From: a virus
Taxonomy: Duplodnaviria; Caudoviricetes
Reading direction: 5' to 3' (one strand)
DNA: 64,000 nucleotides
IMG/VR virus record: IMGVR_UViG_3300028797_000005
Location: 32,001 to 96,000 of that record
Part shown: piece by piece, positions 8,121 to 13,946 of the stretch
Position numbering within the stretch: the first letter of the stretch is position 1
Layout: each line of letters starts with the position of its first letter
Program-made: the position numbers and the translations under genes
Notes under the pieces: model-generated
What the model was told of the DNA's origin: nothing
Seen by the model: only the letters and a program-made list of their open reading frames with translations
The model's database searches: none

Positions 8121-9545
8121 TTATCCTTTCTTCGTTAATACCCAGTCCGCAGTTTCATTACTTACGGTGCCTTCGCCGCCTACGACGTAAGCTTTCTTTG
8201 GGCTTAAAGTAGTAACATATCCTTGAGCTTCTCCCCAAGCGCCTGGATCGGCAAGGAGAAGTGGATGTCTTCCTAAGTTGCAAGAGCAAAGACCATCTGG
8301 GAAGCTCTTACCAGTAGCAATTACAATAGTATCAGCTTTAGCAAAGAACCTCTTAGCGATAGCAGCTGAAGTACTGTAACGATTATTACCATAGCAACGA
8401 GTGGTCTTACCATATTTCTTTAACTCTTCCTCAACCTTATCAGTAACTGCCGCGCTTCCACCGATAATGTAGAAAGTTCTATCCATCTTACCATAGTAAA
8501 TTTCCATTTCACTTAAGAATCTTGCCTGGTCTGGTAAAAGGCTTTTGCCTACGAGAAGAATTGGAATCTGTAAAGTAGATGCGCAGAGAGCATCTGGAAA
8601 ACTTTGTCCAGAACAAACTGCAATAGCTTGTCCAATCTCTACGTCCTTAAAAATCTCAAGGTTTGTATAGTAACGATTCTTGCCAGCATAGCGTTTTACC
8701 TTATAAGCAGAAAGTTTTTCTTCCATCGCTTTTGGAATTACGCCTTCACCGCCGCAGATAAATACTTGAGCATCTTCTTCAAGTCTACCTTTTAAATAAG
8801 TAGCTACTGAGTTCATAACTGATTCAGTATTATTGGTAAGAAGAAGTGGCCCGCCAACTCTTGACACGAGATAGCCAGCTGAAAGAGCATCGGCATAATT
8901 TTCACCACTTGCAATAACTGCCGCGGAGAACTTGCCTGGATATGTAATATTAGCTAAAGCCTTAGCTGTTTCATATCTATTATTACCCCAGACTCTTTCA
9001 AACCCCATAACTGGTTTTGGCTCCGGGTTAGGCGGATTAAGTCTAAGATTTACTTGGTTAGCTATATAGTCAAACTTACTTCCTAGATATGGGCCTGGGC
9101 AAAGAGTTGCCGCGAACCAGCAATGCTTTGTTAAATTGCCGGAAGTATCACCAGTATAATTGAGTTTTGCAATACCATTGCGCTGACAAATATCAACTAC
9201 AAGATCAATGCACTTTGCAATTACCTTATCGGCGACATGCCAATTTCCGCCAATCTCATCATTGGCAAGTTCAATAGTAACCGCTCTACGGTCATTATCG
9301 CCATTTGATGACGCCCAAGAGCGATCTTTTTCTTCAACATACATTCCAACTTGGAGGTCATTGTCAATAGCATAATTGGCTGATGCCTCTCTATAACCAT
9401 CAGAGAAAACTCTGCCAACTGTTTCTACTGATAGATCACCAGCCATATGATGGATAGTAATAGTATCAATTTTATGGCCAAGCCGGCTTGATTGATTAGG
9501 GCTGATTCTTGTATAAGTAACCAAAGAACTATTGCTCATAGCCAT
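8121..9545 (-). CDS. N-acetylmuramoyl-L-alanine amidase (Amidase_2) with three CW_binding_2 repeats; endolysin
   Basis: ITIHHMA, ASANY, VTIELAN, H..FAATLCPG, then three R..G.NRY.T / G..F.DAL / IIGG..AV repeats. Start at 9545 has RBS AAAGGGGAGG. Confidence 0.9.
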   Translation of the reverse strand: MAMSNSSLVTYTRISPNQSSRLGHKIDTITIHHMAGDLSVETVGRVFSDGYREASANYAIDNDLQVGMYVEEKDRSWASSNGDNDRRAVTIELANDEIGGNWHVADKVIAKCIDLVVDICQRNGIAKLNYTGDTSGNLTKHCWFAATLCPGPYLGSKFDYIANQVNLRLNPPNPEPKPVMGFERVWGNNRYETAKALANITYPGKFSAAVIASGENYADALSAGYLVSRVGGPLLLTNNTESVMNSVATYLKGRLEEDAQVFICGGEGVIPKAMEEKLSAYKVKRYAGKNRYYTNLEIFKDVEIGQAIAVCSGQSFPDALCASTLQIPILLVGKSLLPDQARFLSEMEIYYGKMDRTFYIIGGSAAVTDKVEEELKKYGKTTRCYGNNRYSTSAAIAKRFFAKADTIVIATGKSFPDGLCSCNLGRHPLLLADPGAWGEAQGYVTTLSPKKAYVVGGEGTVSNETADWVLTKKG

Positions 9546-9665
9546 CGTCCTCCCCTTTACCGTTTGAAAGTTCTTCAACAGTTGATTGAACCGCACATTC
9601 ACTTTCTGGGATTTCTACATCTCCTATTTGGGAGATTTTTTGTTGTTTAAATTCAGTTAACATTG

Positions 9666-10443: not shown

Positions 10444-11385
10444 TCACAACACCTTATTTAAGAACTTCTGCATAGCTAATGCCGATTCTTCACCGAATAT
10501 TCCGTCAATAACAATATTATATCCCTGTTTCTCTCTCAGCCATCTTTGCCATGCTCTAACAGTATTTTCATCAACATAACCATTCGTGGGAGCTGCAATG
10601 CCTTTCTTAATCAGATAATTTTGAAATACTTTAATCATCTGACTGCCGCCACCGTCAGTATCATATGAAAGAATGGCAGGTGCATATCTCTTAATTGAAC
10701 TTAACTGGTCACTAATAATACCATCTTGAGTAGTTCCAAGCCATTTCTGCATGGCCGCAATACTTAATTTACCAAATTCGCCATCTTCATCTAACTTAGC
10801 TTTATCTTCATAATTGATAGGATTATAAATAAAACCTTGGAAAGTGTACTGGCCGAAATGATAAGGCGGCTTATGAGTGCTTAACCAGAATCTAGTACTG
10901 TAATAAGCTGAGTTAGAACAAGTGATGCTACCATCGGCATTAATCTTTTCAACAATAGCTACATGGCCCATGCCGTCACTATCATCGTAAGCATTTCCTC
11001 TTCTCCAACAAATGACAGCTCCAAGTTTAGGAGTCTTACCACGCTTATAGCCGTCATTAGTATTATACCATCTTTCAGCATCGGCGCGGCTTAGATTATG
11101 CTTTGCTCCAAGTAATTCTCTCCAGCGGCCCCAGGCATAGCCTACACAGTTAGGAAGGCAACTTTTCCCTTCAATTTTAATGCAATAATTGTAGCCGCCA
11201 GCTGTATAATGGATCCAGTTTTTATCAGTCGTACTAGGTGCCTTTAATCTAGGGACCCAGATCGCTCCAATGCCTTCAGGAAGTTCTTCTCCGTCTTGTA
11301 CTTCAATGCCAGCATCAAGACAAGCCTGATAGAAATCATCTTCTATCATTTCTTCCAAAATTTGGCTATTATTATCTTTTTCCAT
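10444..11385 (-). CDS. CHAP-domain peptidoglycan hydrolase with C-terminal PG-binding repeats
   Basis: NCVGYAWGR (catalytic Cys), GHVAIVE (His), DGEFG/DGIFG binding repeats. Likely start 11385 with RBS AAGGAGG. Confidence 0.88.
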   Translation of the reverse strand: MEKDNNSQILEEMIEDDFYQACLDAGIEVQDGEELPEGIGAIWVPRLKAPSTTDKNWIHYTAGGYNYCIKIEGKSCLPNCVGYAWGRWRELLGAKHNLSRADAERWYNTNDGYKRGKTPKLGAVICWRRGNAYDDSDGMGHVAIVEKINADGSITCSNSAYYSTRFWLSTHKPPYHFGQYTFQGFIYNPINYEDKAKLDEDGEFGKLSIAAMQKWLGTTQDGIISDQLSSIKRYAPAILSYDTDGGGSQMIKVFQNYLIKKGIAAPTNGYVDENTVRAWQRWLREKQGYNIVIDGIFGEESALAMQKFLNKVL

Positions 11386-11412
11386 AACTTCCTCCTTAAT
11401 TTTTATCATTAT

Positions 11413-11440
11413 CAAGTAACCTTTCCTTTATATTTATATA
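11413..11440 (-). promoter_or_regulatory. Candidate late promoter TATATA-N17-ACTTG
   Basis: Between the ncRNA terminator and the lysin operon; resembles the sites at 6541 and 22318. Confidence 0.35.
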
Positions 11441-11442
11441 AT

Positions 11443-11476
11443 AAAAAAAGGTTGGCTTTTTATCAAATAGCCAACC
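11443..11476 (-). terminator. Intrinsic terminator ending the ncRNA transcript
   Basis: Minus strand GGTTGGCT-loop-AGCCAACC followed by T7. Confidence 0.85.
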
Positions 11477-11487
11477 CTATATGTTAA

Positions 11488-11546
11488 GAGGTCATAATAA
11501 AGGGGGTGACCTCATAGTGGGCAGTATGATAAGGAGGAAACTGCCC
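11488..11546 (-). ncRNA. Two hairpins with C/U-rich anti-SD loops
   Basis: GGGCAGU-UUCCUCCUUAUCAU-ACUGCCC (11519-11546) and GAGGUCA-CCCCCUUUAUUA-UGACCUC (11488-11513). Confidence 0.6.
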
Positions 11547-11591
11547 CTTATTCAACCCACTAAGGTAGGGTTGCACCAGAAAGGTTTAGTA

Positions 11592-12138
11592 CGTATCATT
11601 GGGGCTTCCCCCTACAACCAATCAAAACTTGATTTAATCAATCACGGTGGAGATAAGTCTGAGCAGAAGGGAGCTACCCTCAAGCTTCTTACCCCGGTCT
11701 CTCGACCTAGTACACCGACAGGATTGGAACCTGCTACTTTCACCCGCTTTCAGAAACCTTCATGTTGTTTAAACATACAACTTTTATCTTGTATGTTGCG
11801 GCTGTTGGGCTACTCGTACCTTCCTTAGTGTCATAGCCGGATTTCACGGCTTCTCCGCAAATTCGATTCTTTGGTATTCCCTTAGGGGCCTTACTTGGTT
11901 ACCAGTCAAGCGGCATAAGGGTTATTCTCCACAGGAGCGTCTATTACTCGAACCACTTCGGAAGTATTTTAATCTTATTAAGTTGGTGCGCTGTTACTAT
12001 ACTTTGAGGTTTGACTCTCTTCAGGACTAAAGGCTTATTCACCTAATCCAGCATCTCACTTAAAGAACTATCGTTCTAAAAGGATTAGCACATAGCCACC
12101 CCGGCAGGTTGCGCCTTCTACACCGGGATAATGATACG
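11592..12138 (-). ncRNA. Large structured ncRNA, ROOL-like (~547 nt)
   Basis: GC-enriched and without a credible ORF. Closed by a 9-bp terminal helix CGUAUCAUU/AAUGAUACG; many GNRA-capped hairpins and a T-loop arm; bracketed by promoters and a terminator. Size, phage/Firmicute context and recalled motifs (GUGGAGAAUAACC, GAGUAGCCCAA, GGGUAGCUCCC, GCUCAGAC) fit ROOL. Not confirmed by a covariance model. Confidence 0.7.
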
Positions 12139-12202
12139 GGAATTTTAGTTCAGCCGAAGCCTTAACAGCTGCGCCACGGGAAGGCAATTCCATGCAGCCA
12201 TC

Positions 12203-12243
12203 GGTCGAGGTTGAAAGGAAAGGAAAGAAACATATCCTCGACC
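12203..12243 (-). ncRNA. 5' leader hairpin with U/C-rich loop
   Basis: GGUCGAGG-AUAUGUUUCUUUCCUUUCCUUUCAA-CCUCGACC immediately after the predicted TSS (~12247). Confidence 0.6.
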
Positions 12244-12253
12244 TTACTTAAAT

Positions 12254-12458
12254 ATTATATCAAAAATTTCAGAAACTTGCAAATTTTCGATTCCGAATTT
12301 TTCGGAAAAATTTTATCTGACTAATCTCTCAACCTTACATAAATATTATATCAAAAATTTCAAAATTAATCAAATTTTCATTTATATCTTTCAGTAAGGA
12401 TTTCGTTCCTCTCTCGACCTTACTTATATAGTATATCAAAAATCTCATTTCTTTTCAA
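12254..12458 (-). promoter_or_regulatory. Three tandem sigmaA promoters driving the ncRNA cassette
   Basis: TTGCAA-N17-TATAAT (12282-12254), TTGATT-N17-TATAAT (12373-12345), TTGAAA-N17-TATACT (12458-12430). Each has TTTTTGA before the -10 and GTAAGGTYGAG after it. Confidence 0.88.
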
Positions 12459-12470
12459 ATTTTCGTAGCT

Positions 12471-13328
12471 TCAAATTTTCAAAAATTCTGGATTCATGGT
12501 AAGATTATAAAGAAGCATATAATCTTCCTTTGTCGGTTCAAACGGCAAGAAAGACAAAAGTTTTCTCCACATATTCATGTTATCAAAGATACTGAATAAA
12601 TCCCAAGATACCCATTGTTTCTTATGATTATTAGGCTCCGCAATAAACTCAGCTAATTTACCAACATAAGGCTTATATAATACTTCTATTTGACTTCTAA
12701 AATCTTCCCAGTCAAATTCATTGACTTTATGATTTAAGATAAGACACTCACCACTCTTTGTACTTAAGATACAATGATCAAAGTTAGGAGCATCTTCTCT
12801 TGTCAAAATAGAGCTACACAATTCACTATCTACTGAACTGCCAGCGCCAAATATAAAGTGGGAATAGTGAACATTCTTACTATAAAAAATTGCCGTACTT
12901 TTATCAACATTATAGCTATGCCATATGATAGATGAATCCATAATTTCACTACTCATATCATGGACATTTGTACTTTTTATAATATGAGAACTATCGAATA
13001 CACTTACACTATCGAAAACTCTTGTAGAATCTATAACATAACTTGAGTTCTTAACCTTGCGGCTGCCGGCGACCATCATACTACCAGTAATTTCACAGCT
13101 TTTATAAATGCCGCTTGACTTTTCATCAATCATGGCGCACCCGCGCAAAAGCTGCTTATCTTCATCTGGCAGCTCAACCTCGAACATCAAGTTGCAAGCC
13201 AGCTGAGGAGAACAGTAATCTTCAATAATGTCCTTAACTTCTTTGCCAACATAATCGCCTTCATACATGGCTTTTCTAGTCCAGTCAGTCACATATTGAC
13301 CTTGTAACATTTCATCAGTTATTACCAT
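12471..13328 (-). CDS. Hypothetical protein with Ser-periodic (beta-helix-like) central repeats
   Basis: S..V..S..I..S periodicity at about residues 90-165. Confidence 0.6.
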   Translation of the reverse strand: MVITDEMLQGQYVTDWTRKAMYEGDYVGKEVKDIIEDYCSPQLACNLMFEVELPDEDKQLLRGCAMIDEKSSGIYKSCEITGSMMVAGSRKVKNSSYVIDSTRVFDSVSVFDSSHIIKSTNVHDMSSEIMDSSIIWHSYNVDKSTAIFYSKNVHYSHFIFGAGSSVDSELCSSILTREDAPNFDHCILSTKSGECLILNHKVNEFDWEDFRSQIEVLYKPYVGKLAEFIAEPNNHKKQWVSWDLFSIFDNMNMWRKLLSFLPFEPTKEDYMLLYNLTMNPEFLKI

Positions 13329-13644
13329 AATTAGTCATCACCGCCAAGTTCAGCTTTGCATTAAGCAAATCAAGCCAAGTAGAAAGATTCTTACCCTTTC
13401 TCCAATACGCGACAGGATAATAAGAACCCTTGCCTTCAATCGTTACATCATCACCAAAGAACAGTTTAATGAAGCGCAGATAATCCACATAAGTCAGACC
13501 AAGCACCCGTGCCGGCGCGACATTATAACTTCCACCATTTTTTGTATTAAAAGGGAAAGTCTCATAATCAGCTGGCACAATAATGCAACGAGTCATATCG
13601 CCAGGAATTGCCTCCCTATATGTAAAATATACTTTCTTCGCCAT
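13315..13644 (-). CDS. Hypothetical protein
   Basis: Likely start ATG 13644 overlapping the upstream stop (TAATG). Confidence 0.65.
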   Translation of the reverse strand: MAKKVYFTYREAIPGDMTRCIIVPADYETFPFNTKNGGSYNVAPARVLGLTYVDYLRFIKLFFGDDVTIEGKGSYYPVAYWRKGKNLSTWLDLLNAKLNLAVMTNYGNN

Positions 13645-13946
13645 TACAGAGACAACTCCTTCCAATACTCTTCCATCTCAACTCTTTCATCGCCAGTTAA
13701 GTCAAGCAGCCACGGGTCTTCCATCAAATTTTTACTCATAACGAAAGTCTCAAGACGCAATCTCATAGCCTCACCATCTATCTGGACAGGCTGAATATCA
13801 GCTTCCGGCACATAACCGGGAATGACATATCTCTTGACAGTCGAAGCTGAAATTCCAAGTTCCCTACCTACGGCGGCATAAGTCTTAAGTTTTAAATATC
13901 TTTCATTAATCTGTTTCTTAATTTCCGGCGTAATTCGCGTAGCCAT
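13644..13946 (-). CDS. Helix-turn-helix DNA-binding protein
   Basis: TYAAVGRELGISASTVKRYV is a typical HTH. Confidence 0.8.
   Translation of the reverse strand: MATRITPEIKKQINERYLKLKTYAAVGRELGISASTVKRYVIPGYVPEADIQPVQIDGEAMRLRLETFVMSKNLMEDPWLLDLTGDERVEMEEYWKELSL

Follow-up and report, generated by a model that had tools for sequence, protein, structure and literature searches.

The stem-loops that flank the ROOL RNA of this phage are, to judge from their composition and conservation, probably a functional, lineage-specific set of generic anti-Shine-Dalgarno-like elements attached to ROOL. The window analysed here, 64,000 nucleotides long, comprises positions 32001-96000 of a viral contig of 123,246 bp that carries direct terminal repeats, and the public runs that contain the stretch are bovine and sheep gut metagenomes. 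The unit runs, on the minus strand, through three tandem promoters, hairpins H1, H5 and H6, ROOL, a CU-rich linker, hairpins H4, H2 and H3, and an intrinsic terminator (Table 1). We tentatively read the hairpins as conserved accessory stem-loops of this single ROOL unit that would place generic Shine-Dalgarno-complementary sites on a very abundant RNA, a reading that we regard as plausible rather than probable. The unit is confined to a small lineage of phages from rumen and gut, whose hosts are probably clostridial.

Table 1. Elements of the ROOL unit and neighbouring genes, in the order of transcription within the unit; positions are those of the window.
Feature	Position	Strand	Sequence, fold or assignment
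100-aa protein gene, 5' of ROOL	13644-13946	minus	weak Sigma70_r4 match, E 8e-4
Promoter P3	12430..12458	minus	TTGAAA-17-TG-n-TATACT; conserved in relatives
Promoter P2	12345..12373	minus	TTGATT-17-TATAAT, TG-extended
Promoter P1	12254..12282	minus	TTGCAA-17-TATAAT, TG-extended
H1	12203..12243	minus	8-bp GGUCGAGG/CCUCGACC stem, 25-nt loop with CUUUCCUUUCCUUUC; z -2.3
H5	12164..12202	minus	9-bp stem; inner 3-bp stem GCC/GGC in the loop closes UUCCCGU
H6	12152..12161	minus	small UUCG-tetraloop hairpin directly before ROOL
ROOL RNA	11584..12151	minus	RF03087, 273.3 bits, E 1.9e-61, model positions 1-574 (full length)
CU-rich single-stranded linker	11574..11583	minus	reads CCUUUCUGGUG with C11584 included
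H4	11553..11573	minus	CAACCC/GGGUUG stem, loop UACCUUAGU
H2	11519..11546	minus	7-bp GGGCAGU/ACUGCCC stem, loop UUCCUCCUUAUCAU; z -2.8
H3	11488..11513	minus	7-bp GAGGUCA/UGACCUC stem, loop CCCCCUUUAUUA; z -4.0
Intrinsic terminator	11443..11477	minus	10-bp G+C-rich stem and U7; -14.8 kcal/mol, z -3.6
CHAP lysin RBS	11389..11398	minus	UAAGGAGGAA
CHAP/PG_binding lysin	11385-10444	minus	Pfam CHAP domain; start codon ATG at 11385
Amidase_2/CWB2 RBS	9549..9559	minus	UAAAGGGGAGG; sits within the 44-aa upstream gene
Amidase (Amidase_2/CWB2) gene	8121-9545	minus	three CWB2 cell-wall-binding repeats

The covariance-model score of ROOL compares with a gathering threshold of 99.1, and the match does not include H1, H2 or H3; when 11380-12480 was scanned against Rfam by E-value, ROOL alone was returned, all other matches being at chance level. 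As far as can be read from the DNA, the hairpins are co-transcribed with the large RNA, as the initial annotation had claimed, since they lie between the promoters and the terminator of the ROOL unit. Three strong tandem host-type promoters would drive an RNA reading H1-H5-H6-ROOL-linker-H4-H2-H3, and the terminator would end it before the lysis genes. The terminator falls between H3 and the lysin gene, the unit ending about 50 nt before the lysin ribosome-binding site (RBS); its stem and U-tract are kept in relatives and its loop is variable. H2 and H3 have no U-tract and are therefore not terminators. Contigs from an RNA library are identical to the window over 11743-12171, within ROOL; none identical was found over the flanks or the lysin gene, and such contigs cannot show transcript ends or absence. 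Two competing features of the 3' flank were rejected: a promoter-like site inside H4-H2 (11555-11526), which is not conserved in relatives, and an antisense ORF with a strong Shine-Dalgarno sequence (+11517..11828), which on inspection of the alignment stops after 11 codons in the related contig L143.

P1-P3 belong to a set of 34 TG-extended sigma-70-type promoters in the genome, whose leaders are purine-rich and RBS-like (for example GUAAGGUUGAGAGAGGAA and AAAGGAAAGGAG). Many of the 34 lead into a conserved initial transcribed sequence, GTAAG(G/A)T(T/G)(G/A)AGAG (for example at window 12430-12458 and 14308, and at genome position 15377), and related phages carry many copies of the same promoter-plus-leader unit. 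Two to three tandem consensus promoters also stand immediately 5' of ROOL in the unrelated loci L120, L121 and L131, and promoter stacking may be a general route to very high ROOL levels.

The genes around ROOL are all on the minus strand. On its 5' side lies a small operon that ends in a gene for a 285-aa protein. The 100-aa protein encoded on this side is 87% conserved in relatives and adjoins the KTSC-domain gene; it could be a transcription regulator of the phage. Between the 285-aa gene and the ROOL promoters, relatives have one more gene, of 59-60 aa and under a promoter of its own (L143:2752-2931; L150:5922-6104), which the window lacks. On the 3' side follow the CHAP/PG_binding lysin, a 258-aa gene, a 44-aa gene and the Amidase_2 protein, whose CWB2 repeats point to a clostridial-type host, one with an S-layer or cell wall of the clostridial type. 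The lysis cassette encodes two different peptidoglycan hydrolases, to which relatives add a 3D-domain protein. ARAGORN found no tRNA in the window and no tRNA-like element at the flanks.

H1, H2 and H3 all fold on the minus strand where the initial annotation had placed them, and their loops are C/U-rich, as it had said, and resemble the anti-Shine-Dalgarno tail of the ribosome; H4, H5, H6 and the linker had been missed. The 148-nt 3' flank as a whole reaches a z of -4.0, and none of 200 shuffles fold equally well. The loops of H1 to H5 and the linker expose C/U motifs: CUUUCCUUUCCUUUC in H1, UUCCUCCUUA at the beginning of the H2 loop with its anti-Shine-Dalgarno-like core CCUCCUU, CCCCCUUUA in H3, ACCUUAG in H4, CCUUCCC in H5 and CCUUUCU in the linker. 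CCUUUC occurs twice in H1, and seven CCUU-type tracts lie in unpaired parts of the flanks. The two flanks together (199 nt) hold 9 CCUY words, which is the genome maximum over all 199-nt windows on both strands; the fraction of such windows reaching 9 is 7e-5.

The 3' tail of Firmicute 16S rRNA reads GAUCACCUCCUUUCU, a sequence that we assume for the host rather than read from it; the H2 loop, the linker and, with its two CCUUUC words, H1 repeat parts of this tail. Typical RBSs and leaders of the phage (AAAGGAAAGGAG or GUAAGGUUGAGAGAGGAA) are the complement of the loops, and duplexes between the loops and RBSs of the phage itself attain energies of -16 to -20 kcal/mol. Because the loops are complementary to this common RBS and leader type, we read them as generic anti-Shine-Dalgarno-like elements. 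The loops and linker would then pair broadly with purine-rich sequences of the RBS type. Candidates are the ROOL transcript's own mRNA-derived leaders, whichever strong RBSs come first on a read-through RNA and, possibly, RBSs in trans. At the other end of the transcript, the 5' arm of H1 is promoter-proximal leader sequence, and the P1 start predicted from the -10 hexamer lies 3-5 nt 5' of the hairpin. H1 is formed by this Shine-Dalgarno-like leader, GGUCGAGG, together with its complement and stands only a few bases away from the predicted start, so that it would cap the 5' end of the RNA and mask the leader. The leader of P3 also folds into a hairpin, AGUAAGG...CCUUACU.

Pairings of the loops within the transcript itself gave no consistent alternative. 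An alternative fold of UAAGGGG with CCUCCUUA was set aside in favour of the H2 fold, as a duplicated copy of the region breaks the former pairing and preserves H2 on inspection of the alignment; the ROOL tract ACUAAGG was likewise rejected as a partner of H4, since the ROOL tract changes in relatives and H4 does not. No intramolecular partner site for the loops is common to both lineages.

Five close relatives (L143, L144, L150, L158 and L159), which come from different samples and are all syntenic, were reached through homologues of three proteins: the lysin, the 285-aa and the 100-aa protein. They form one clade, with 96-99% mutual identity and about 76% identity to the window, so that the comparison is effectively one of two lineages, plus one paralogous copy. 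All unit elements are kept in 5/5 of these contigs, and the C/U-rich character of the loops, on which the initial annotation had staked its proposal, is retained at each of the homologous loci. Conservation is uneven along the unit. Identity to L143 is 81% in the promoters, 85% in H1, 78% in H5-H6, 68% in ROOL, 91% in linker-H4-H2, 59% in H3, 65% in the terminator region and 56% in the spacer from terminator to ATG. The core of the H1 loop, UUCCUUUCCUUUCA, is invariant in relatives, as are the linker, H4 and the UUUCCUCCUUA portion of the H2 loop; nothing in the H4-H2 block differs apart from a 3-nt indel and the 3' portion of the H2 loop. The H3 stem is kept and its loops differ (CCCCCUUUAUUA, GUUUCCUUCGU, GUUCCUUUGU), yet all of them are C/U-rich.

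Several stems change in a way that preserves pairing. H5 has a compensatory G-C to C-G change in the L143 clade, its arms reading GCUGC/GCAGC in the window, GCUCC/GGAGC in that clade and GUCAC/GUGAC in the more distant L131, and H6 changes from GGC/GCU to GCC/GGC in relatives. The inner loop of H5, GCC-UNCNCGU-GGC, is common even to L131 (1430-1465), where the homologous loop is GCCUGCUCGUGGC; H5 and H6 may extend ROOL at its 5' end in this group of phages. L144, L158 and L159, each from a different sample, carry a tandem 82-nt duplicate of the linker-H4-H2 module (L144:372-453) that keeps both stems through one compensatory G-C to U-A change in H2 and two wobble changes, with C-G becoming U-G in H4. 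The H2 stem of this duplicate is 11 bp long with a loop shrunk to UUCUU, and its loop sequence has drifted to UUUCUUCUUG, losing the CCUCC core (CUUCU). Covariation is statistically weak, 100 of 500 shuffles reaching the observed values, because there are few distinct sequences, effectively those of two lineages plus the paralogous copy.

A sheep-gut contig is identical over 11506-11584, and its other 86 nt do not fit the window. No INPHARED phage matched the whole cassette, and exact patterns for the H4-H2 block, for hairpin H2 and for a ROOL block specific to the lineage had no match in viral, metagenome and genome collections. When a covariance model of H4-H2 was searched, it recovered its own locus alone, with nothing significant in 18 other phage records; the best other match (E 0.013 on a rough calibration) is distant from any ROOL. 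The more distant homologues of the lysin (P0004, P0005, P0006, P0008 and P0010) proved to lie in unrelated small-phage contexts without ROOL and were set aside.

The flanking hairpins are not a general property of ROOL but, as the compared loci indicate, lineage-specific. Thirteen ROOL loci on viral contigs share only about 50% identity with this ROOL, and their flanks are tRNAs, bare promoters or simple terminators; across 14 other ROOL loci, each 110-nt flank holds 0-2 CCUY words, and homologous hairpins are absent. L131, the nearest of the relatives that bear ROOL, was found through a DnaE search (56% DnaE identity). It shares the promoter type, in two tandem copies, and the H5 homologue, and its leader also makes a start-proximal hairpin; in place of H4-H2-H3 it has a tRNA-Thr and a terminator, after which, on our reading of the sequence, a different gene follows. 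The tRNA-Thr begins right after the last ROOL base and the terminator comes next (L131:2075-2150), an arrangement that fits tRNA-guided 3' processing of ROOL in that phage.

The initial annotation had proposed a more specific role, in which the loops of H2 and H3 bind the RBSs of the CHAP lysin and the amidase, either in cis on read-through RNA or in trans, and so restrain translation of the lysis genes. The complementary sequences do exist. The lysin RBS UAAGGAGGAA, at 11398-11389, is a perfect 10-nt match to H2, and the complement of H1 reported before the KTSC gene, GAAAGGAAA, is present; UAAAGGGG is likewise found at 9559-9552, but the amidase RBS that contains it is not unusual, reading UAAAGGGGAGGA with a canonical GGAGG, and the H1 complement near the CHAP gene, AAAGGAAAGG, lies one base away from where it had been placed, at 11430-11421. 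We scored each loop against positions -30 to +6 of all 164 genes of the whole genome, called by a simple ORF and Shine-Dalgarno heuristic with heuristic starts; the resulting energy ranks ignore accessibility. For the H2 loop the lysin RBS comes 2nd among the 164 (-16.0 kcal/mol) and gives the only perfect run of 10 nt, with the amidase 7th, and for the H3 loop the amidase RBS comes 1st at -14.7, the next best being -11.9. The ranking thus favoured the proposed pairs for H2 and H3 but not for H1, which is unspecific: the KTSC gene is at rank 18 and the lysin at rank 89, and runs of at least 9 nt occur in 11 genes. Composition-matched shuffled loops place the lysin at rank 2 or better in only 3% of trials and the amidase at rank 1 in only 4.3%, which speaks for a lysin-directed role. 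Within one genome the H2-lysin and H3-amidase matches are somewhat better than composition alone, for pairs picked post hoc and with three other loops showing nothing. In relatives, too, H2 finds its two best local partners in the lysin and amidase RBSs. Between the terminator and the lysin gene, the alignment of relatives shows no evident conserved promoter of the host type, so read-through from the ROOL promoters could matter, and on such read-through RNA H2 alone could lock the lysin RBS in cis. The comparison with relatives, however, showed no co-variation of loops and RBSs for H3-amidase, H2-lysin or H1. The amidase RBS, AAAGGGGAGGA, is invariant, in part owing to its position within the 44-aa gene, whereas the H3 loop is altered (GUUUCCUUCGU or GUUCCUUUGU); the best amidase duplex reaches only -8.4 kcal/mol there and loses its top rank. 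The lysin RBS becomes AAAAGGAGGAUU, and its match to H2 shrinks from 10 nt to the canonical 8-nt AAGGAGGA core, past which nothing is kept. The purine tract near the lysin gene that matches H1 is also altered. Position argues in the same direction: H2 lies about 130 nt 5' of the lysin Shine-Dalgarno sequence with a strong terminator between them, which is not the layout of a cis sequestrator, and the amidase RBS is 1.9 kb from the hairpins. Both targets score best because they are among the strongest G-rich Shine-Dalgarno sequences, favoured by any C-rich loop (with shuffled H3 loops, the median rank of the amidase is 16), plus a few extra bases that relatives lose. Custom anti-lysin sRNAs are not supported by these alignments, the loss of the matches and the intervening terminator speak against the proposal of lysin-matched, RBS-occluding modules, and we consider a lysin-specific lock improbable.

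Two further explanations dispense with Shine-Dalgarno pairing altogether. The hairpins may serve only as structure, H1 guarding the 5' end and H4-H2-H3 with the terminator guarding the 3' end, aiding ROOL folding and insulating the RNA from the lysis genes, with loops that have no partner. Stem-loops close to the start are known in Firmicutes to stabilise RNAs, and H1 and the P3 leader hairpin resemble them in beginning only a few nucleotides from the predicted start, as does the leader hairpin of L131; the stems, moreover, are kept in all relatives and the H3 loop is free to vary. Yet the H1 loop is long, C/U-rich and conserved, none of which a simple stabiliser needs, the loops of the H4-H2 block and the linker stay invariant while ROOL diverges by about 30%, and end protection alone calls for neither the C/U-richness of all loops nor a CCUY density at the genome maximum. 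We think it unlikely that structure is the whole role. The high conservation of the loop sequences argues instead that the loops contact something, and the conserved loops could equally be protein, processing or docking sites. Such a module, in which a phage or host protein binds the H4-H2 block and the CCUU loops or the block docks on the ROOL cage, is to our minds no likelier than a purely structural one; candidates are a pyrimidine-tract binder, a nuclease that replaces tRNA-guided trimming by RNase P/Z, and the neighbouring KTSC-domain protein. It would account for an H4-H2 block that is ultraconserved, loops included, and for the conserved KTSC/HTH operon upstream. The tRNA of L131 sits exactly at the position of H4-H2-H3, several other ROOL loci have an adjoining tRNA, and a tRNA at that position suggests that the flank has a role in end processing or as cargo. 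Against recognition of this kind, no intramolecular partner is consistent in both lineages, the ARAGORN search gave no tRNA-like element, and the flanks match no Rfam family.

The generic anti-Shine-Dalgarno reading that we tentatively prefer has a bacterial precedent. C/U-rich loops that bind Shine-Dalgarno regions are an established mechanism in low-GC Gram-positive bacteria, where LhrC1-5, RNAIII, RsaE, SprD and FsrA carry redundant UCCC-type C/U motifs and one RNA could bind several RBSs (PMC4132741). The flanks described here are like these RNAs in having C/U motifs in loops and single-stranded linkers that are complementary to G-rich Shine-Dalgarno sequences. They differ in being the flanks of a 568-nt nanocage-forming RNA rather than independent small RNAs, in that the pairing is a candidate one only, and in having no sequence homology to these families by the Rfam scan.

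In its gene order, the locus also recalls phage lambda, where the late promoter PR' is followed by the 6S RNA, the tR' terminator and the lysis genes. Here too a strong promoter, a non-coding transcript, an intrinsic terminator and a lysis cassette follow one another on the same strand. Unlike in lambda, the RNA is the large, structured ROOL, there is no evidence of antitermination, and the association with lysis genes is confined to this lineage, L131 having a different gene.

Among ROOL cassettes (RF03087) of phages and prophages, this one is ordinary in its full-length ROOL, its strong promoters, tandem as in some loci, its phage context and its rumen origin, and it differs in the six extra C/U-loop stem-loops outside the Rfam model that this lineage carries. 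Several other ROOL loci have a tRNA adjoining ROOL or run directly from promoter to terminator (PMC5737381, PMC12286853). ROOL itself assembles into an octameric nanocage and is frequently encoded near tRNA islands; pull-downs with the related GOLLD RNA have recovered ribosomes (PMC12286853). It is tempting to speculate that in this lineage the octameric cage displays, at the place taken by a tRNA in L131, several mimics of the 16S 3' tail per chain, hence tens of anti-Shine-Dalgarno sites per particle, and captures the ribosome-binding regions of mRNAs or competes with the 30S subunit, although we hold this to be very unlikely.

The structure of ROOL as an RNA-only nanocage is solved, and its tRNA neighbours already hint at translation. 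What is new here is a conserved, lineage-specific module beside ROOL whose loops copy anti-Shine-Dalgarno sequence, and this raises the hypothesis that ROOL particles touch ribosome-binding sites. If the cage does carry such anti-Shine-Dalgarno sites, this would be the first functional link of the ROOL cage to translation initiation; if the loops bind a protein or a nuclease instead, that molecule would be the first ROOL partner.
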